Positions 3,748 through 25,359 of a stretch of DNA of 62,371 nucleotides are shown here, one piece after another. Source of the DNA: Gammaproteobacteria bacterium (GTDB lineage Bacteria; Pseudomonadota; Gammaproteobacteria; GCA-001735895); NCBI GenBank assembly GCA_024229615.1, contig JAAESG010000620.1, positions 1-62,371 of the forward strand. Reading direction: 5' to 3'. The first letter of the stretch is position 1; each line of letters starts with the position of its first letter. The position numbers and the translations under genes are program-made. The notes beneath the pieces are model-generated. The model was not told the DNA's origin, ran no database searches, and saw only the letters and a program-made list of their open reading frames with translations.

Positions 3748-4561
3748 ATTCACGGTCGAGGATCGAGACAAAGAAATCGAAAGGCTCGATCAACTGGTTC
3801 TTTCATTGGATGGCTTCTCGATCCCCGCTATCGCTCTCGAACAATCGCTCGAAGAGTGCCGATCCTTGAATGACAAGCTCGGGCTGGTCAGGGTCGAGGC
3901 GCTCAAGATCGATTCCCCTGCGCTCTATACCGACTACGGTTCGTTCTTTCGACGTATCAAGGACATCGAGAAAAAGATCGAAGAGCAACGGATAAAGGAT
4001 AAGGCGGGGCCGCTCGAAGAGGGACGAAGGATTGACGCGAAGTATGGCGGGTTCAAAGATTTCGCGAAGCGGTTGCGGACGGTTTTTGATTACGCTATGA
4101 ACATTTGGGATCGAGAGCAAAAAAGAATACAGCGCGAAGAGGAAGTTCGACTCCGCGAGAAGGCGCGGAAGGAGCAAGAGAAGCTCGACCTACGCGCCGA
4201 AAAGAAAGCGGCCAAGCTCGAAGACGAAGGCAAAACCGACGAAGCTGATGCAGTGCGCGAAGCGGTTCCGATTGTCCCTACTCCGACCGTTGCGCCAGCC
4301 GACATTCCAAAAGTTGCAGGCGTCACCAAAGTCAAGCGATGGAAGGCGGAGATTACCGCCGAGGCTCTCGACAAACAAGAAAAACTCCTCATCGAGATGA
4401 TTAAAAGCTGGAACGCTTGGCCGAAGAATCGAGGCAAAGAAATTATCCCTGGCGAGTTCTGGAGCCTCGATGTCAAAGCGATCAACGCGATGGCTCGCTC
4501 GCTAAAGGGAAAGCTCGAACTTCCCGATGTTGATGTCTTCGACGCCGACACGCGGCATTGA
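3725..4561 (+). CDS. Coiled-coil phage protein
   Basis: GGAGG SD; long E/K/R-rich helix then KVAGVTKVKRWKAEI. Confidence 0.7.
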   Translation: MPKTTEVEFTVEDRDKEIERLDQLVLSLDGFSIPAIALEQSLEECRSLNDKLGLVRVEALKIDSPALYTDYGSFFRRIKDIEKKIEEQRIKDKAGPLEEGRRIDAKYGGFKDFAKRLRTVFDYAMNIWDREQKRIQREEEVRLREKARKEQEKLDLRAEKKAAKLEDEGKTDEADAVREAVPIVPTPTVAPADIPKVAGVTKVKRWKAEITAEALDKQEKLLIEMIKSWNAWPKNRGKEIIPGEFWSLDVKAINAMARSLKGKLELPDVDVFDADTRH

Positions 4562-4867: not shown

Positions 4868-5260
4868 ATGGCTTGCGATTGGATGCTTTGTGATAATCCG
4901 GTTGTCGCTGGAGAGCTTTATTGCATCGTTCACCTTCCGGATATTCTGAGAACGAGATGGGTTGAGCCAAACGAACGCGAACGGGAACGGCTCTATATCC
5001 TCATCGAAGAGTTGAACGAAGCGGGGCAAATTTTCAGCCGAGCACAACATATCGCTATGAAAGTGCTTCGCTTCGGTTTCGATGAGGTTTACCCGAAAAC
5101 AGAAACCGACAATCGCGCTCGACTTGAAGAGGAGCTAGGCGACGTTGCTGCGATGATCGAGATTATGGTTCTCGCTGGCGATGTCAGCGCGACGAACATA
5201 GTTCTTGCACGCAAAGCGAAGTTCGAAAAACTCAAACGCTTTATGAGAAATAAGCCGTGA
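4868..5260 (+). CDS. MazG-like nucleotide pyrophosphohydrolase
   Basis: LIEELNEAGQ...KVLRFG...LEEELGDVAAMI (EExxE / EExxD motifs). Confidence 0.7.
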   Translation: MACDWMLCDNPVVAGELYCIVHLPDILRTRWVEPNERERERLYILIEELNEAGQIFSRAQHIAMKVLRFGFDEVYPKTETDNRARLEEELGDVAAMIEIMVLAGDVSATNIVLARKAKFEKLKRFMRNKP

Positions 5261-5289
5261 AGTGAAAACCATAAGGAGGTTAAAAGCAC

Positions 5290-5889
5290 ATGGCGATTAA
5301 AGAAATAAAATTCAAGTTCAACGGTACAAGACCGTTGATGATTCAATCCGAGCGGACTGCCAATCCGCTCGACCCTATCACAAAAGGAATCAAGAAGTAT
5401 ACGAGCAAGCCAGCGAGTCAAAAAACGGACGCGGATCATCTTGCGGTTATGCGTCTTGAGTTCGAGGCTGCTTTTTACGTTGGCGCTCCCGATAATCTAG
5501 GGCCATGTATTCCTGGCCTTAACGTTGAAGCGTGCATCCGAGACGGGGCGAAGTCTCAACGCAAAGGTGCGACGATAACACGAGCGCTTAACGTTGCCGA
5601 AGAGTGGATTGCCGTACAGTACAAAGGACCGCGAACCATTGCGGAGCTTTGGGCGCAACCGGACAAGTTTGTTGACTATCGCGGCGTCAAGCCTACCAGC
5701 AAAGCTAAGGTTATGCGGTGCCGTCCTGTTTTTCATGGATGGTCCCTCGTTGCGACTGTTGAATTCGAAGACGAAATGATTAATCGAAAGCAGTTGATCG
5801 AATACGTAAAGTATGCCGGGAAATATGTCAGTGTCGGAACGTATCGTCCTACGTTCGGGCGCTTTTCTGTAAGCGTTTTAAAGAAATGA
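5290..5889 (+). CDS. Stand-alone Cas7/RAMP-like protein (candidate RNA-guided effector)
   Basis: N-terminal strand EIKFKFNGTRPLMIQ; PCIPGLNVEACIRDGA (cf. RAMP PxIPGSSxKGxxR); C-terminal G-rich loop AGKYVSVGTYRPTFGRFSV; AAGGAGG SD. Confidence 0.7.
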   Translation: MAIKEIKFKFNGTRPLMIQSERTANPLDPITKGIKKYTSKPASQKTDADHLAVMRLEFEAAFYVGAPDNLGPCIPGLNVEACIRDGAKSQRKGATITRALNVAEEWIAVQYKGPRTIAELWAQPDKFVDYRGVKPTSKAKVMRCRPVFHGWSLVATVEFEDEMINRKQLIEYVKYAGKYVSVGTYRPTFGRFSVSVLKK

Positions 5890-5893
5890 TTTC

Positions 5894-6315
5894 TGCGAGG
5901 CGCGGCAAAGCTTGGTCAAGCCCGGTATGGTTTCGTTTTGCGACGCCATGCGTGGCAAGGCAAGGATTTTATCTAACCTTGAAAAAGGGATGATGAAGAA
6001 ACAAAGGCCAAAGGCAAGGCGATGCGACGCCGTGCGCATCTTCGCTTGGCATGGTGTGGTCGGGTTGAGCATAGCGTTAGTGTTGCAGCGCACGGCAAGG
6101 CAAGGATTTTATCTAACCTAAGCAAAAGGGATGATGAAAGCAAAAGGTCAAAGGCTCGGAGCGGCAGTGTCGAGCCATGTTAGGCATTGCAGCGCTGAGA
6201 ATTGCAGAGCAAGGACCAAAGGCTTTGCCGAGCCTGGCGAGGCGCAGCGCGGTCGAGCACACCATGGCGCAGCGCGGAAAGGTTTGGCGATGCAAAGCAA
6301 GGATTTCATCTAACC
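5894..6315 (+). ncRNA. Array of four 5-nt-periodic (NGY-NN)n tracts with conserved boundary motif; candidate guide-RNA array
   Basis: Tracts 5894-5968, 6013-6108, 6153-6217, 6221-6305; central G in 58/60 pentamers, pyrimidine after it in 57/60; GCAAGGATTTYATCTAACC at 5960-5978, 6100-6118, 6297-6315. Confidence 0.75.
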
Positions 6316-6334
6316 TTTGAAGGAGAAAATTGAA

Positions 6335-6865
6335 ATGAAAAAGTCAACGCTCAAGGAATTGGCAGATCGAGCCATCCTCCGCGCTGGAGGCAACAGCCAT
6401 CAAGCATTCACGGCTTTGTTGAAGCGTGTCACAAACAACGAATCGCTCAAGGATTTAGCGGTTCGCTTGGGAGTTTCCCAAATTATCAGGAACGCACAAA
6501 ACGACATGAGAACAGCGGCATCTTCCGAACAGCTTGCCGAGTTTCTTGAATCTACACCAACAGGCAAACCTGTTGCCGCCATCTCGCCGGAGGATTTCAA
6601 ATTGCTCGAAGGGCGCTTCCTGTATCCGCTTCACAAAAGCGGAACATACATCGGCCTTGCAACCGAAGAGCTAATCCTCGAATCGATTGCCGAGATTGAT
6701 CGAAACATGGAAGGGCTTGCCAGCGCAAAAGGGTTTCAGGATGCAGTCTTGCGGGAACTTAAAAGGAAACGCAAGAACAAAAAGCAACGACCCATCGATG
6801 TTATGTCGGAACACGAAATAAACGAGCTTTACACGAAGCACTGCAAACAAAAAAAGGTAGCGTAG
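6335..6865 (+). CDS. Hypothetical protein directly downstream of the array (possible accessory gene)
   Basis: AAGGAG SD, MKKSTLKEL start. Confidence 0.7.
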   Translation: MKKSTLKELADRAILRAGGNSHQAFTALLKRVTNNESLKDLAVRLGVSQIIRNAQNDMRTAASSEQLAEFLESTPTGKPVAAISPEDFKLLEGRFLYPLHKSGTYIGLATEELILESIAEIDRNMEGLASAKGFQDAVLRELKRKRKNKKQRPIDVMSEHEINELYTKHCKQKKVA

Positions 6866-6875
6866 GTAATTTTTT

Positions 6876-7466
6876 ATGGAACTTGATCAAAGATGGTATG
6901 AGCCAGGGAAGAAAAAGATCCAGCGGCGCAAGCGCATTGATGTATCGGAGCGCGGCCAAAGGATCGCGCTCGAAGCGGGGCGAATCAAGTATGAATCGAA
7001 TCGACGAAGAGGATTCAAACATACATTCGGCCTCGATGATTCGATAGCTCTGCGCATGGATCAAGTCGGTGCCTTGGGAAAGGTTGCGATATTCGAACAT
7101 CTCGGGCTTGATCCGTCTCCTGTTCTCATCGACCGCCCTCCGCATCGTTACAAAGATCCAGACATCGATCCGAAGGTATGGATTAGAAGCGCCGAAGGTA
7201 CCAACAAACGTCTGTACCTGCGCAAGGATGACGAGCCTAATTCGGATGGGCTTTTCATTTGGGCTCCGGTTATCTCGTTCGAAGAGGGAATCGTTTTTTT
7301 TACCGGATGGATTTATTGTCATGAAGGATTGAAGTCTTACTACTGGCAACAAGTTCGAGCGGATCGCGATCCTCAGTTTTACGTTCCCAATTCTTTCCCT
7401 CCCCTTCGCCCGTATTCGACATTCCGCGAAGCGTGGGGGCAAGACAAACAAGGAGCGCTGTTCTAA
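6876..7466 (+). CDS. Hypothetical protein, possibly restriction-endonuclease-like fold
   Basis: GALGKVA...DPDID...WIRS...FFTGWI pattern; fold is inference. Confidence 0.55.
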   Translation: MELDQRWYEPGKKKIQRRKRIDVSERGQRIALEAGRIKYESNRRRGFKHTFGLDDSIALRMDQVGALGKVAIFEHLGLDPSPVLIDRPPHRYKDPDIDPKVWIRSAEGTNKRLYLRKDDEPNSDGLFIWAPVISFEEGIVFFTGWIYCHEGLKSYYWQQVRADRDPQFYVPNSFPPLRPYSTFREAWGQDKQGALF

Positions 7467-7741
7467 TGGACAAAGAAATGAACATAACAGCGATGATGAT
7501 TGGTGGTCCTTACGACCGGCGCCGGATCACTGTTCCAAAGGAAAAACCTTACATTGATATTCCAGAACAGCTAGATCGCTCCCTTGATTCCCCGGTTGCT
7601 CGTTTCCAAGTTCACCGCTACCAGAGGATGTCTTTCGTTGACAGCGACAGAGAATTGGTTTTCGTCTTCGTCCATTCCGACATGATGAAGGGTGGCATCT
7701 TGCGTCATCTTTTAGAAGCCTATAGGAGCCACAATGGATAA
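7466..7741 (+). CDS. Hypothetical protein (IGGPYD motif)
   Basis: AAGGAG SD; start overlaps upstream stop. Confidence 0.6.
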   Translation: MDKEMNITAMMIGGPYDRRRITVPKEKPYIDIPEQLDRSLDSPVARFQVHRYQRMSFVDSDRELVFVFVHSDMMKGGILRHLLEAYRSHNG

Positions 7742-17400: not shown

Positions 17401-17446
17401 TTCCATGAAGAAATCGTAAACCGTTAACAGGAGGATGGAGGGAAAC

Positions 17447-18874
17447 ATGGAAACAAGGATGATGAAAACTGCAAACATTTGCAAAAGCTCAGTCGGAAAC
17501 GTCCGGAAGGATCTCGGCGATCTCTCCGAGCTTACCGCCTCGATCAAAGAGAACGGCATCTTGGAACCGATTGCGGTTCGACCGACACCGGGCGACAATT
17601 ATGAAATCGTTTTCGGCTTCCGGCGCTTTGCTGTTGCTCAAGTGCTCAAGCTCGATGTGGTTCCGGTTGTCGTTTGGCAAAAGCTCTCCGACGAGAAGGT
17701 CATCGAGTTTCAACTCGTCGAGAACCTCAACCGCGAAGACATTCATCCCATGGATGAAGCAATCGGATTTTTTAAACTTCGCGAGGATCACAAAAAGCTG
17801 GTCGAGGATATCGTCAAGGCGACTGGCAAAGTCAAAGCATACATCTATGCCTCGATGAAGCTCGTCGAGCTTTCCGCGCTTGCTCAAGAGGCGTTCCGCA
17901 AGGGCAAGTTCGATGTTTCGGTTGCCGTTCCCCTCGCGAGGATCTCAACCGAAGAGGGCCAGGCAAAAGCCGTCAAGGTAGTTCAAGGGTTGCCCGCTCG
18001 CGAAGCGTTCGCCGAAATCGACAAGATCAATGAGCACATCGAGCTTGATGCGAAGTGGGAAAAGGTGAAGGCGAAAGCGCTGAAGGACAATACAAGTGTT
18101 TTGACGCAAGCAGCCGCCGCAAAAACACTCAATGATGGCTTCGTTCGTCACGACTCGGATTTTGTCAACTTGGACGCTCAAGACTTCAACCATCCCAAGA
18201 TGTTGAAGTATCGCGACATCGTTAAAAAGAACATGCCGCCCGTTATCCTGGCGCAGTGTCCCGACTCTCACAAAATCTTCAAGCTCGCCTCCAAGAAGGA
18301 TTTCGCGAAATCGGTGAAAGCTATCTACGGCGAGAAGGGATACCTGCCCGACAAGCAAACGCTCTCTCCAGAGGTTGCCAAGAGAAACGAAAAGGTGCTC
18401 GCCTTCCGGAAGTTCAAAACGCAAGCCATGCCGCTCGTCATCGAGAAGGCGATCACCGGCTCGACCGTCAACTTTCTTCGCGCGCTCCTTTTGCTATGCA
18501 TCGATGTTGCGCCGGGTCTATTCAACCGGATCTTGCTCAAGCCGTATGACCGGAAGGACGCGGAGTTCCGCCATAGCATCGGCACCATGAATGAGAAACA
18601 ACTTCGCGACGAGCTTTTCGTCTTGCTCGCCTCGGAGGTAAACGAGAGCAAGTTTGCCAACGTCTGCAATCTGTTGAAGGTGAGCGATGCCTCAATCTCA
18701 AAGATCAAGCAACAAGTTTCGGATGAAGCCAAAGCCAAAACGCAGCGAGCTAAAGAGATCGAAAAGAAGAAGCTCGCAAAGGCGAAAGCGGATAAGGCAA
18801 AACCGAAGGGAGAGGAAAAGGCCAAGCCCGCGCCTAAGTATTCCAAGGGACGAAGAGCTTCTAAAAAATCTTGA
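17447..18874 (+). CDS. parB: ParB/Spo0J-family protein with long C-terminal extension
   Basis: GILEPIAVR...YEIVFGFRR...QLVENLNREDIHPMDEA, then HTH region; Lys-rich tail; start could be 17435, 17447 or 17459. Confidence 0.85.
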   Translation: METRMMKTANICKSSVGNVRKDLGDLSELTASIKENGILEPIAVRPTPGDNYEIVFGFRRFAVAQVLKLDVVPVVVWQKLSDEKVIEFQLVENLNREDIHPMDEAIGFFKLREDHKKLVEDIVKATGKVKAYIYASMKLVELSALAQEAFRKGKFDVSVAVPLARISTEEGQAKAVKVVQGLPAREAFAEIDKINEHIELDAKWEKVKAKALKDNTSVLTQAAAAKTLNDGFVRHDSDFVNLDAQDFNHPKMLKYRDIVKKNMPPVILAQCPDSHKIFKLASKKDFAKSVKAIYGEKGYLPDKQTLSPEVAKRNEKVLAFRKFKTQAMPLVIEKAITGSTVNFLRALLLLCIDVAPGLFNRILLKPYDRKDAEFRHSIGTMNEKQLRDELFVLLASEVNESKFANVCNLLKVSDASISKIKQQVSDEAKAKTQRAKEIEKKKLAKAKADKAKPKGEEKAKPAPKYSKGRRASKKS

Positions 18875-20254: not shown

Positions 20255-20449
20255 ATGTCTATCGATTGGTACGAAATCGGTTTCGGTTATAAGTACCATG
20301 CCATAGAAGACGGTAAAACGCTTTGTGGGACCGGAGAGATTTTTTATCGAACGGTTACGCGGGTAAATCCGCCAGGCGATGATCCCTGCAGCGCAAACGA
20401 AAAATATTGCAAGCTCTGTCATGCAATCGCGCTTAGGAGAAAAAGATGA
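20255..20449 (+). CDS. Small Zn-binding protein
   Basis: YHAI...TLCG...CKLC; GGAGG SD. Confidence 0.55.
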   Translation: MSIDWYEIGFGYKYHAIEDGKTLCGTGEIFYRTVTRVNPPGDDPCSANEKYCKLCHAIALRRKR

Positions 20450-20532
20450 AAGACAAAAGCAATTTGTACCTGGGCCTACTCTTCGCCTTTGCGATTGCTT
20501 GGGCGCTTTTTTCTTGGTGGACAACCGTATGA
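20446..20532 (+). CDS. 28-aa transmembrane peptide (not in the ORF track)
   Basis: MKDKSNLYLGLLFAFAIAWALFSWWTTV*, AGGAG SD, ATGA overlaps on both sides. Confidence 0.5.
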   Translation: MKDKSNLYLGLLFAFAIAWALFSWWTTV

Positions 20533-20858
20533 AAACGGCAAAGAAGCCTTGTCGTGTCTGCGAAGGTACCGGGAAGGTACCTATCAAAGGAGCCAAATCC
20601 GGTTATCCGACCGAAACGATGTGCCTGTTTTGCAAGGGGCAAGGATGGATCTCGGTTTCTCAGATGCAACCGCTTCGTGCTGTTAGACGAAATCGCAGCC
20701 TATTCAAATCGTTTTATGAAGCGCTGGCGATGTTCATTGTTTGCGGAGCGTTCGTGCTCGTGCTCTACGAGATTGAATATCTCGACCGCCTTCCCGCTTC
20801 TGTTTTGCTCGCTGTTCTGTTCTTGCTTTTTTGGAACGCACATCATAGGAGCCGGTAG
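20529..20858 (+). CDS. DnaJ-type Zn finger plus two-TM protein
   Basis: CRVCEGTG...CLFCKGQG then hydrophobic helices. Confidence 0.6.
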   Translation: MKTAKKPCRVCEGTGKVPIKGAKSGYPTETMCLFCKGQGWISVSQMQPLRAVRRNRSLFKSFYEALAMFIVCGAFVLVLYEIEYLDRLPASVLLAVLFLLFWNAHHRSR

Positions 20859-22077: not shown

Positions 22078-22683
22078 ATGAAGAAAAAACCTATACGCAA
22101 GAAAGGCCGGAAGCCTGGGCCGAAGGCTCATAAAAAAAGAACCCGCGCTCCAGCAAAGAAAAAACCGCCTCGAAGAAAACTCTCGACGAAACAACTCCCC
22201 GAGCAAGATGTTGATTTCGAAACATTGCTCGGGGAGCTACTTCCAAGGCAAAAAGAATTTCTGGAAGCGTACTATGAAGAGGGAACGGTTGCAGAAGCCG
22301 CACGCAAAACCGGAGTTTCCCGCCAGGCACATCATGACGTTTGGATGAGAAAGGATAGCGCCGGGAAATATGTCTACGGGCTCTATGCTCAACTCTTCAA
22401 CGATGCAAGAAACGCGCTCGTCGAAATTGCAGAGGCCGCACTCTGGAAGCGTGGCGTCAAAGGGATCGATGAGCCCCTCTTCTATCAAGGCGAAATGACG
22501 AAACATAAAATAACGAAGTACGATACAACCGCTTTGATATTTTGGCTCAAAGGAAACTGCCCGCAGAAGTATCGAGATCGCTTCGAGCATACCGGTCGAG
22601 ATGGCGGACCTATCTCGATGACCATCGATGCCGCAAGACAAATCGCAGATAACTTCGACAAGAACCAAAAGGAGGGAACGTGA
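22078..22683 (+). CDS. terS: Terminase small subunit
   Basis: QKEFLEAY...GTVAEAARKTGVSR HTH; YDTTALIFWLKG..P.KYRDR.EHTG.DGGPI; upstream of TerL. Confidence 0.8.
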   Translation: MKKKPIRKKGRKPGPKAHKKRTRAPAKKKPPRRKLSTKQLPEQDVDFETLLGELLPRQKEFLEAYYEEGTVAEAARKTGVSRQAHHDVWMRKDSAGKYVYGLYAQLFNDARNALVEIAEAALWKRGVKGIDEPLFYQGEMTKHKITKYDTTALIFWLKGNCPQKYRDRFEHTGRDGGPISMTIDAARQIADNFDKNQKEGT

Positions 22684-23802: not shown

Positions 23803-25359
23803 TTGATAGCAACGCTTCCCCTTGATGAGATGGTCGCTCTCTATGTGAGCGACCCTCCTTTTTTTGCTCGGGACATCTATCCAAGCCTAAGCCAGGATCA
23901 AAAGATCGCGCTCTGTATGCGCGATTCTGTTTTGTTCTCAAAGAATATCCTGCAGCATGTTACATGGGACAAACAAGATGAGATGCTCCGAGCTATCTTT
24001 GAGAATGATAAGACTGGCGTTAAAGCCTGCCATGCAAGCTCGAAAACTTACTCCGCTGCCGAGGCTGCAGTCTATTGGCTAGCCCGCTATAAAGACGGTG
24101 TGGTCATCTCGACCGCGCCAGGGGACCGGCAAGTAACGGGCCTCCTATGGAGAGAGGTTCGCGAAGCGCTATCAAGGTGCCTTCTCGATTTCGGTGTCAA
24201 GCCTACTCTCAAGGGGCTCAACATAACCGAAACAAATTATGGAATGGGAATGGCAACCCGTTCCGATGTTACTGCAGGAAGGGGCGTTCGCTTTTCTGGT
24301 TTCCACGGTGGCAAGATTCTTTTAATCGTTGATGAAGCGCCAGGTGTGAGTCAAGATATTTGGGACGGCATTCAAGGCATACAGGCAGGCGGTGAGGTTC
24401 ACGTTGTAGCGCTCGGCAACCCGGTTATTCCTTCCGGGCCTTTTTATGACATCTTCCACACGAAGCGCGCCGGATGGCATTGTATTACCATCGATGCTTT
24501 CGAAACGCCTAACCTTATCGGGCTCAATATTCACGACATCGCCAAAATGAGTCAAGAGGAGCTTGACCTAAACCCGAGTCATGTTCCGAACCTCATCACG
24601 CGCCGATGGGTTCGAAATATGATGGATGAGTTAAACGTTGATCCCGATGCGCCCGATGAGCTTCAAGACCCGCTTTGGCAATCGAAGGTTCGCGGCCAGT
24701 TTCCCACGCAAGCGGAAGATTCAGTTATTTGGCTCGCATGGATTGAAGCGGCGAGAACAAAAGAGCGCGACGACCAACCGAAAGGCTTTTTTACTGCGGG
24801 CGTCGATCCTGCTGCCGGGGGGGACAACGCAACAGCGGTTGAAGTCGTCGAGGGATATCATCTCGCCGGTCGCAATTCATGGAGGAAAAAAGATCCAAGA
24901 GGCGAGGTTGTTGCGTTTCTCAACGGCTTTGGACCGATGCTCCGCGAGGTTCGTGTTGATGTTGATGGAGTTGGCTATTATTTCGCGAAGCACTTGGGAG
25001 ATCAAGGATTCAACGTGGTCGAGTTCCATAATGGAGCAACCGCGATCAACGAGAAACGTTTCAAGAACAAAAAGACCGAGGGTTTCTGGAACCTGCGCGA
25101 GCTATACCAGCGTGGGCTCATAACGGGAAAGATCGACGACACCACAATGAGCCAGCTTTCCTCGATTCGTTATGGACACGATCCTAAAGGCATCATTGAA
25201 GTCGAGAGCAAGGATTCGATGGCAAAGCGTGGGGTGAAGTCGCCCGACCACGCTGACGCTCAGATGATGGCGCTCGCTCCGGTACACAAGGTAGGTACAC
25301 CGCCCTCCGATAGAATGATGGCTACATTGCGGCACATTCCAGCAATGAGCCAGTTTTGA
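23803..25359 (+). CDS. terL: Terminase large subunit
   Basis: Q motif WDKQ, P-loop variant KACHASSKT, Walker B LLIVDEAPG, ALGNP, RNase H GVDPA, SPDHADA; start may be 23830. Confidence 0.92.
   Translation: MIATLPLDEMVALYVSDPPFFARDIYPSLSQDQKIALCMRDSVLFSKNILQHVTWDKQDEMLRAIFENDKTGVKACHASSKTYSAAEAAVYWLARYKDGVVISTAPGDRQVTGLLWREVREALSRCLLDFGVKPTLKGLNITETNYGMGMATRSDVTAGRGVRFSGFHGGKILLIVDEAPGVSQDIWDGIQGIQAGGEVHVVALGNPVIPSGPFYDIFHTKRAGWHCITIDAFETPNLIGLNIHDIAKMSQEELDLNPSHVPNLITRRWVRNMMDELNVDPDAPDELQDPLWQSKVRGQFPTQAEDSVIWLAWIEAARTKERDDQPKGFFTAGVDPAAGGDNATAVEVVEGYHLAGRNSWRKKDPRGEVVAFLNGFGPMLREVRVDVDGVGYYFAKHLGDQGFNVVEFHNGATAINEKRFKNKKTEGFWNLRELYQRGLITGKIDDTTMSQLSSIRYGHDPKGIIEVESKDSMAKRGVKSPDHADAQMMALAPVHKVGTPPSDRMMATLRHIPAMSQF

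Follow-up and report, generated by a model that had tools for sequence, protein, structure and literature searches.

The 445 bases that follow a small Cas7-like gene in the 62,371-bp stretch of DNA analysed here (the window) form the guide array of a VIPR system, and the last tract of this array, T3b, is almost certainly a VIPR guide. Under the gapped code of these systems, the best match of T3b in the whole assembly lies at the 3' end of terS, the small terminase gene of the phage that carries the array. The match is unlikely to have arisen by chance, and it is too imperfect to be called a working target; its identity of 0.75 is below the 0.8 used in the literature. We propose, with a probability of roughly 0.45, that terS of rival kin phages is the target of T3b or of a guide from which T3b descends.

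The window is the entire contig C620, one of 735 in a 5.24-Mb assembly, and encodes a tailed phage with a Mu-type portal and protease, terL, a small terminase, SNF2 and UvrD helicases, nucleases and a ParB-like gene. The phage makes up 1.2% of the assembly. Its terS gene is located upstream of terL and the portal gene (Table 1). A blastn search of positions 5800–6400 against phages gave no match, and an Rfam scan of positions 5000–7500 returned nothing relevant.

Table 1. Features discussed in the text, numbered from the first base of the window.
Feature	Positions	Strand	Description
vipr	5290–5889	+	Stand-alone Cas7-like RAMP protein, 199 aa; directly upstream of the guide array
vrRNA 1, tract T1	5895–5964	+	14 pentamers (G-Y-N-N-x)
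Tail 1	5965–6013	+	Conserved motif (26-nt copy at 5954–5979, overlapping the end of T1) and hairpin at 5968–5997
vrRNA 2	6014–6104	+	T2a at 6014–6078 (13 pentamers), one-base register slip at 6079, T2b at 6080–6104 (5 pentamers)
Tail 2	6105–6153	+	Second copy of the conserved tail and hairpin
T3a	6154–6213	+	12 pentamers, without a tail of its own; linked to T3b via GACCAAAG (6214–6221)
T3b	6222–6301	+	16 pentamers
Tail 3	6302–6345	+	Third tail copy, with a hairpin overlapping the Shine-Dalgarno sequence and the start codon (ATG at 6335) of the downstream gene
Downstream gene	6335–6865	+	176 aa; no Pfam or PHROG match; sits where an accessory (vap) gene could be
terS, small terminase subunit	22078–22683	+	phrog_4044 at E 1.5e-22; sigma-70 region 4 HTH
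T3b near-match site in terS	22618–22665	+	Codons MTIDAARQIADNFDKN; guide in coding-strand sense
terL	23803–25359		Downstream of terS

VIPR was first described in 2026 as an RNA-guided DNA silencer (bioRxiv 10.64898/2026.04.26.720920), and the system to which the present locus belongs is already known from three preprints of that year, cited here from their accessible parts. According to the first, VIPR consists of the RAMP protein Vipr and of vrRNAs, in which alternating GGY and NN elements form pentamers that are followed by a 3' tail, and double-stranded DNA is recognised by a code in which NN is read and one base is skipped, the skip usually falling on the wobble base of a codon; both strands contain targets, repression is obtained from either, and the alternative repeats NNNGG, YNNNG and NNNNG are mentioned in its Methods (10.64898/2026.04.26.720920). 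The accessible text of the structural preprint describes one protomer per repeat, sequestered GGY bases, pairing of all 12 repeats in the ternary complex, and reading of the first G of the scaffold by H17 and D177 of SUSP1 Vipr (10.64898/2026.04.26.720927). In the accessible part of the third, targets are scored by full-length identity, called at 0.8 or above, and calibrated with permuted guides (10.64898/2026.10.15.759431). Further marks of these systems are four or more tandem pentamers beside vipr, vrRNAs of about 100 nt that Vipr binds, and an accessory vap gene in the neighbourhood. The initial annotation of the window, made from the letters alone, had read the tract by a gapped code of two bases compared and one skipped. 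This is the published VIPR rule, with a matching Vipr at 5290–5889, and T3b is therefore regarded as a guide.

The product of vipr matched phrog_4652 (E 1.4e-49), and its AF2 model (pLDDT 95) retrieved Csm3/Cas7 backbone subunits of type III and type VII systems as the best Foldseek matches, with 80 such matches at E ≤0.001. A tblastn search returned 130 phage records, mostly of Felixounaviruses, 129 of which covered at least 80% of the query; one example had 34.7% identity at E 2e-27, and the Felixounavirus homologues are about 35% identical to the protein over 99% of its length. In IMG/VR, three contigs encoded Vipr homologues at 34% identity, and GGY-NN pentamer tracts were present directly upstream of the gene in all three. 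Furthermore, segments with a period of five adjoined the vipr homologue in all four annotated phages examined (Medea1, LESphi2, MakoManhole and Alf5). Viprs have an RRM core, a thumb and a G-loop, and the last of these, glycine-rich and C-terminal, is conserved in the protein. SUSP1 itself was absent among the 30 tblastn matches listed. Alf5 Vipr has H17, K33, E71, M72, R138, C173, D177, W178 and R179 at the SUSP1 numbers of the structural preprint. By this numbering, the protein of the window keeps K33, R138 and R179 and has Q in place of H17 and T in place of D177, positions occupied by H and by D or E, respectively, in all five of the other Viprs aligned. On homology and the predicted fold, it is assigned as a Vipr of the published family.

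The 445 bases between the stop codon of vipr and the ATG at 6335 showed a strong 5-base period, with an identity of 0.43 at lag 5 and of 0.22–0.30 at other lags. They were parsed into 60 pentamers of the form G-Y-N-N-x in five tracts. G occupies the first scaffold position in 28 of these units and the second in 58, and 57 units have a pyrimidine at the third. Because the first G is kept in just 28/60, the unit is a YNNNG variant; written as Y-N-N-x-G, it fits the form of that name among the alternative repeats (10.64898/2026.04.26.720920). T1, T2b and T3b all end in GCAA(G/A)GCAAGG, followed by the 26-nt conserved motif and a hairpin, whose 3' arm in Tail 1 is AAAAGGGATGATGAA (RNAfold −11.7 kcal/mol; repeat families D1 and D7). 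T2a and T3a have no tail of their own, and the short junction GACCAAAG between T3a and T3b looks like a deleted tail. The variable dinucleotides of T3b are TT CG CT GA GC GC CG AC AT GC GC AA TT GA AA AA. Its final two units, AA AA, recur almost unchanged at the end of every tract, in agreement with the initial annotation, and may be part of the handle rather than of the guide.

When the assembly was scanned for runs with at least nine of ten fitting pentamers, the array alone was found, apart from one marginal run on contig C587, and an 8/8 scan added one site on contig C112. The C587 run was considered as a second guide and rejected, its best matches being five at 17/22, with no target. The tail motif gave no matches in IMG/VR. 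No RNA run was listed as carrying the locus, and runs X4 and X5 yielded none of it, which has no bearing on whether it is expressed. As for the gene downstream of the array, four full-length homologues of its 176-aa product were found, none of its relatives was present in IMG/VR, and a word-index search returned just the protein itself; the AF2 model is helical (pLDDT 66.5), with no confident fold. In five loci (Medea1, LESphi2, MakoManhole, Alf5 and L001), a gene of a conserved vap1-like wHTH family stands next to vipr. Searches of the window with hmmsearch and hhalign did not find this family, and the 176-aa protein shows no likeness to it.

Compared with the type II VIPR of SUSP1, which comprises Vipr, Vap1 and four vrRNAs, the locus is alike in its small stand-alone RAMP protein, in being phage-borne, in the position of the array beside vipr, in pentamer guides whose NN vary and that precede a conserved, structured tail, and in the retention of K33, R138 and R179. 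It differs in the relaxed first scaffold base together with Q and T at positions 17 and 177, in a tail of another sequence for which a simple hairpin is predicted, in the tailless tracts T2a and T3a, and in that no vap1-like gene was found. Furthermore, the SUSP1 guides converge on a satellite, whereas no natural target of the guides described here was found in the data searched. Among proteins of known structure, the best matches of the Vipr model were Cas7/Csm3 backbone subunits (9g9e chain D, type III-A; 8yhe chain B, type VII), at E 1.8e-7 to 1e-4 and TM 0.45–0.55. Proteins of both kinds assemble into filaments along a guide RNA whose bases are flipped at regular intervals, a property that would extend to the Vipr of the window by analogy. 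Unlike class 1 CRISPR-Cas systems, however, the locus has neither a CRISPR array nor other cas genes, its period is 5 nt instead of 6 nt, and a fixed scaffold lies inside the guide. Rfam detected no CRISPR repeat at threshold, the best score being 19.1 bits, outside the array, against a gathering score of 48, and neither Cas domains nor TrpBP (TRAP) matches were found among the 36 proteins scanned.

Under the one-base skip, the last 13 units of T3b agree with positions 22627–22665 of terS in 10 of 13 dinucleotides and 22 of 26 bases, and all 16 units agree with positions 22618–22665 in 10 of 16 dinucleotides and 24 of 32 bases (eight mismatches). Recomputation thus reproduced the 10/13, 22/26 and 10/16 of the initial annotation and added the 24/32. 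The first three units barely match (2/6 bases). The site is in frame with the open reading frame at 22078–22683, and the skipped base is therefore the wobble base, as had been noticed from the letters together with the fact that CG of T3b and AGA of terS both specify Arg. T3b reads in the sense of the coding strand, and pairing would therefore be with the template strand. The site belongs to the late operon and is situated 15 bases ahead of the stop codon of terS and the start of the following gene, which overlap each other; it coincides with the most conserved part of the terS C-terminus, TIDAARQIADNFDK, in an alignment of 15 homologues and the phage's own protein; the close terS family thus comprises 16 proteins, the window's own included.

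In the window, no position besides terS reached 20/26. Over the 10.4 million positions of the assembly, the 13 units scored 17 at 256 positions, 18 at 45, 19 at 12, 20 at one and 22 at one, the single 22 being terS, and terS was the best match in the whole assembly with the full guide as well as with the 13 units. When skips of zero to three bases were compared by a local score, an outlier was obtained with the one-base skip only (p=0.027), with p≥0.95 for skips of zero, two and three bases. Base-permuted guides reached 24/32 in 3/1000 cases and in 0/1000 in a repeat. Dinucleotide-order shuffles reached the terS value in 2/200 cases by the full-length score and 1/200 by the best-window statistic, and codon-permuted genomes in 2/400 cases with 16 units and 0/400 with the 13 units of the initial annotation. 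The gapped genome scan with a codon-aware null, which that annotation had suggested, thus left terS as the best match.

The significance of the match leans, however, on the two near-constant AA units. With the 14 variable units alone, terS scored 20/28 and was not the best in the assembly, three positions elsewhere scoring 21 and nine scoring 20, and the nulls reached its score in 27/1000 base permutations, 16/200 shuffles and 36/400 codon-permuted genomes. Shuffled tracts, which were expected in the initial annotation to fall short of terS, therefore do so in nearly all cases with 16 units and less consistently with 14. In addition, the test covered five tracts, and the choice of the 13-unit window was post hoc. 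We estimate the family-wise chance at about 0.015–0.03 if the AA units count and at least 0.15 if they do not; the earlier figure of about 1e-3 per tract is thus of the right order for the chosen window and optimistic given the post hoc choice and the number of tracts. Among the other tracts, the best self match of T1 (18/28) was reached by 679/1000 permuted guides and that of T2a (17/26) by 787/1000, and T2b gave no self-match signal. A match of T3a at 4291 (18/24) was rejected as chance, with the skip on codon position 2 and 40/1000 permuted guides reaching the score. The location of T3b mismatches on variable alignment columns was not significant (785/4368 subsets and 20/78). The Arg codon AGA was also considered as an escape codon; it is no sign of escape because AGR accounts for 22% of Arg codons in the phage, and it accounts for 6/16 in terS.

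T3b of the window is polymorphic. Logan contigs of two runs of one study, X1, from which the assembly may derive, and X2, carry a different T3b, with five substitutions (6259, 6273, 6278, 6281 and 6283) and one extra pentamer after 6296. These amount to a change in a single NN (AC to GC, unit 8), four changes in the scaffold, and an added unit, with AC as its NN, ahead of the last one. On a 4.2-kb contig, five of eight substitutions lie within 25 bases of T3b. The second allele scored 24/34 on terS (identity 0.71), which was still its best match in the assembly, with two other positions at 23, and 4/1000 permuted guides reached the terS score. Its best relative by protein bounds was the homologue P0032, at 25–27/34. 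The departures of the guide from the phage's own terS occur as natural terS variants, namely Ala for Asp in P0034, Thr after Lys in P0032 and Ala for Gln in P0030, and none of the 15 homologues combines these three.

The initial annotation looked to a related terS that would match T3b better than the phage's own, which scores 22/26 and 24/32. In the three relatives with DNA, T3b scored 20/26 and 20/32 (L031), 21/26 and 23/32 (L032), and 20/26 and 22/32 (L033), respectively; the outcome that the initial annotation named as refuting, no related terS better than self, thus holds for all three. When score bounds were derived from the amino acids of the 15 homologues, P0034 alone could exceed self, at 23–24/26 and 25–27/32 (maximum 0.84), and the other 14 were bounded at or below self for the window allele. 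Exact seeds of units 1–8, 4–11 and 9–16 gave 12, 50 and 69 matches in IMG/VR, none of which extended beyond 24/32, and 79 host-family genomes contained no full T3b match at three or fewer mismatches and nothing phage-like. The 13-unit pattern occurred at one homologous locus in six genomes of the genus with 23/26, and 23/32 over 16 units, on the antisense strand of a transmembrane segment in a chromosomal membrane-protein gene unrelated to terS, showing that chance does yield scores higher than that of terS when the search space is larger. No matches were obtained for T1 in 79 genomes or for T3a in 61, and T2a was searched in the assembly alone. For T3b, a natural target at 0.8 or above under the one-base skip was not found, and the best full-length match anywhere was the phage's own terS. 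Of the proposal in the initial annotation, that the tract guides against terS of a competitor, the guide thus stands, and a rival terS target was found in neither the relatives, IMG/VR nor the 79 genomes. Because no guide of the array has an identifiable target in the data, the lack of a better terS is weak evidence; the absence of a target at 0.8 or above bears on knowing the target and not on VIPR membership.

On homology with the SUSP1 and P. fulva systems, for which the mechanism is reported, we suggest how the array may function. Positions 6221–6305 are almost certainly the specificity-bearing tract of the last vrRNA of the array. If this vrRNA is expressed, as we infer from those systems, Vipr protomers would polymerise on it, one per pentamer, burying the fixed part (N-G-Y in this phage) and displaying each NN dinucleotide. 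The filament would then pair with double-stranded DNA, two bases read and one skipped, blocking transcription. T3b would be aimed at, or descended from a guide against, the conserved C-terminal terS codons of rival phages of the same family, and the phage's own terS, with 8/32 mismatches and an identity lower than such guides are assumed to need for activity, would be spared. In a stricter and rather unlikely form, T3b would be a kin-discriminating guide that silences the terS C-terminal segment of rivals, the phage's own copy escaping by a few codon differences and the alleles tracking rival terS.

There is a precedent for guides that match self less well than the homologous loci of rivals in the accessible part of the third preprint (10.64898/2026.10.15.759431), and the idea of a guide against rival terS therefore remains reasonable. 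It is in logic that T3b resembles the solo and vipr-targeting vrRNAs of the SUSP1 family, in which a rival's homologue is aimed at and the self-match is lower; the targets there are vipr genes and vrRNA loci, with identities of at least 0.8 to real rivals (10.64898/2026.10.15.759431), whereas the candidate target of T3b is a packaging gene and no higher-scoring rival was found. In the accessible texts, the word 'terminase' has no occurrence in the first preprint (10.64898/2026.04.26.720920) and two in the third, both in satellite classification (10.64898/2026.10.15.759431). Speaking for a guide against rival terS, besides this precedent, are the top rank of the match in the assembly, its rarity under the full-length nulls, its restriction to the one-base skip, the in-frame wobble skip like that of published natural targets, the second allele being also best on terS, the natural variants in P0034 and P0032, and the conservation of the site. 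Counting against it are the signal in one of five tracts, the lack of a better terS and the reliance on AA units, and a guide on such a conserved region discriminates poorly between self and kin.

T3b may instead be a real guide for an unrelated, unsampled element, its resemblance to terS being the extreme tail of chance, and we regard this explanation as a serious contender, though at less than even odds. The guide is rich in GC, GA and AA, dinucleotides that are common at codon positions 1 and 2, and it is to such a coincidence that the loss of the first rank and the higher null counts without AA AA, the number of tracts, the post hoc window and the host gene at 23/26 point, as do the lack of a relative whose terS is better than self by DNA and an identity short of 0.8. 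However, the full-length statistic of the field gave 0–3/1000 permuted guides at 24/32, the single best of 10.4 million positions fell in a phage that is 1.2% of the assembly, and the skip is in frame on the wobble base and specific to one nucleotide.

The initial annotation had also considered that the guide tunes the phage's own packaging genes. Vipr with T3b would in that case bind the 3' end of terS weakly and damp transcription of the packaging and late operon. The best match of the array does lie in the phage itself, in its late operon, 15 bases ahead of the stop codon of terS, and VIPR represses from either strand (10.64898/2026.04.26.720920). We consider such self-tuning improbable. 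In the accessible part of the first preprint, perturbed NN pairing abolished silencing in the assays, and no self match at 0.8 or above was reported for the guides tested, of the P. fulva clade (96), type III (63) and type V (39) (10.64898/2026.04.26.720920). T3b has 8/32 mismatches to terS, its first three units match in 2/6 bases, and the co-occurring allele is lower still, at 0.71.

TRAP-type attenuation involves the TRAP (TrpBP) protein and (G/U)AG triplet repeats in a layout of a triplet and a 2-nt spacer. That the tracts are not guides, being instead sites of a TRAP-type ring protein controlling downstream translation, or small peptides, is extremely improbable: the units resemble the triplet and spacer of TRAP sites, the tails hold Shine-Dalgarno-like and start-like sequences, with Tail 3 overlapping a real ribosome-binding site, and open reading frames exist at 5912–6121 and 6131–6313, but the neighbouring gene encodes a Cas7-like RAMP protein of the Vipr family, the period is five and not three, the fixed part of the pentamer is G-Y and not (G/U)AG, and both frames were rejected as coding because they read the conserved tail in different frames. 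A TRAP-like site or a Shine-Dalgarno-sequestering leader was accordingly dropped on the Cas7-like fold of the neighbour and the VIPR preprint.

The locus adds a phage of an uncultured, marine-type kind to the VIPR family. Its Q17/T177 pair with a relaxed first scaffold base, a combination that may be new, offers a natural test of how Vipr reads the scaffold. If the terS match is a coincidence, it calls for caution in target calling, in that sub-threshold self matches can pass a null of permuted guides once near-constant terminal units are included. The possibility of a target in a packaging gene of kin may likewise be new. If T3b is indeed directed against terS of rivals, VIPR targets would for the first time include a core virion-assembly gene of kin, beyond satellites, prophage switches and VIPR loci, and the handful of mismatches that spare self would delimit, in a natural setting, how far the gapped code tolerates mismatches. 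The link to terS would then mean that VIPR is used between close kin, in an arms race between guide and packaging gene within one phage family.

The junction between guide tracts T3a and T3b (6209–6226) carries the sequence GACCAAAG, which reads like a vrRNA pair from which the tail between both tracts has been lost. At the T2a/T2b boundary (6074–6084), one additional base shifts the register. The conserved tails, each comprising a motif and a hairpin, share a further feature in their 3' arms, as listed below with the array segments of related contigs. In the third tail copy, this feature is what gene 6335 actually uses as its ribosome-binding site and start, making it possible that the array grew by duplication of a unit that took in the 5' end of this gene.

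Tail 3' arms of the window and guide-array segments of IMG/VR contigs
Feature	Positions	Content
Tail 3' arm, first copy	5983–5997	Shine–Dalgarno-like sequence, then ATG
Tail 3' arm, second copy	6124–6138	Shine–Dalgarno-like sequence, then ATG
Tail 3' arm, third copy	6320–6337	Shine–Dalgarno-like sequence, then ATG
Guide-array segment, L001	2846–2990	IMG/VR contig with Vipr match
Guide-array segment, L002	2812–2985	IMG/VR contig with Vipr match
Guide-array segment, L003	63–200	IMG/VR contig with Vipr match

Residues 23–62 of the 176-aa protein encoded downstream of the array (gene 6335–6865) matched 25 separate stretches of P0045, a 3237-aa protein of the representative library. Elsewhere in the window, a ParB-like gene (17435–18874) is not a direct neighbour of the VIPR locus, being 11 kb away, and a 159-aa protein (20379–20858) showed weak, sub-threshold matches to the DnaJ CXXCXGXG (E 3.6e-4) and Anti-TRAP zinc-ribbon (E 1.1e-3) motifs.

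In the Vipr of SUSP1, an Escherichia phage with type II VIPR, H17 and D177 read the first scaffold G, whereas the Vipr of the window (gene 5290–5889) has Q and T, respectively, at these positions, at which H and D/E are kept in five other Viprs. Of the 60 window pentamers, just 28 have G as the first scaffold base.

Over its last 13 units, T3b matched a conserved chromosomal membrane-protein gene in six genomes of the host genus (L155–L160) at 23/26 nucleotides, with the skipped base on the wobble position; the matched site lies on the antisense strand, at the segment FFTNFAAMVLAAT. The own genome was without such a membrane-protein match to T3b. The match is probably due to chance; alternatively, the gene may serve as a host decoy or target of T3b. 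On another contig of the own assembly (C587, 2243–2297), away from the phage, a non-coding run of 11 consecutive pentamers, 10 of which start with G-Y, could be a solo guide; a search for its target found none, the top score of 17/22 being reached five times.

Within T3b, a polymorphic tract, Logan contigs from two sequencing runs of one study (X1 and X2) carried five substitutions and one extra pentamer at 6259–6296. Five of the eight substitutions in one 4.2-kb contig were packed into 25 bases at T3b, a cluster that looks like a recombination patch. The Vipr matches in L001, L002 and L003 were equal in identity and E-value, yet their arrays comprise either two or three guide tracts and vary in pentamer content. 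Turnover of these arrays is fast.
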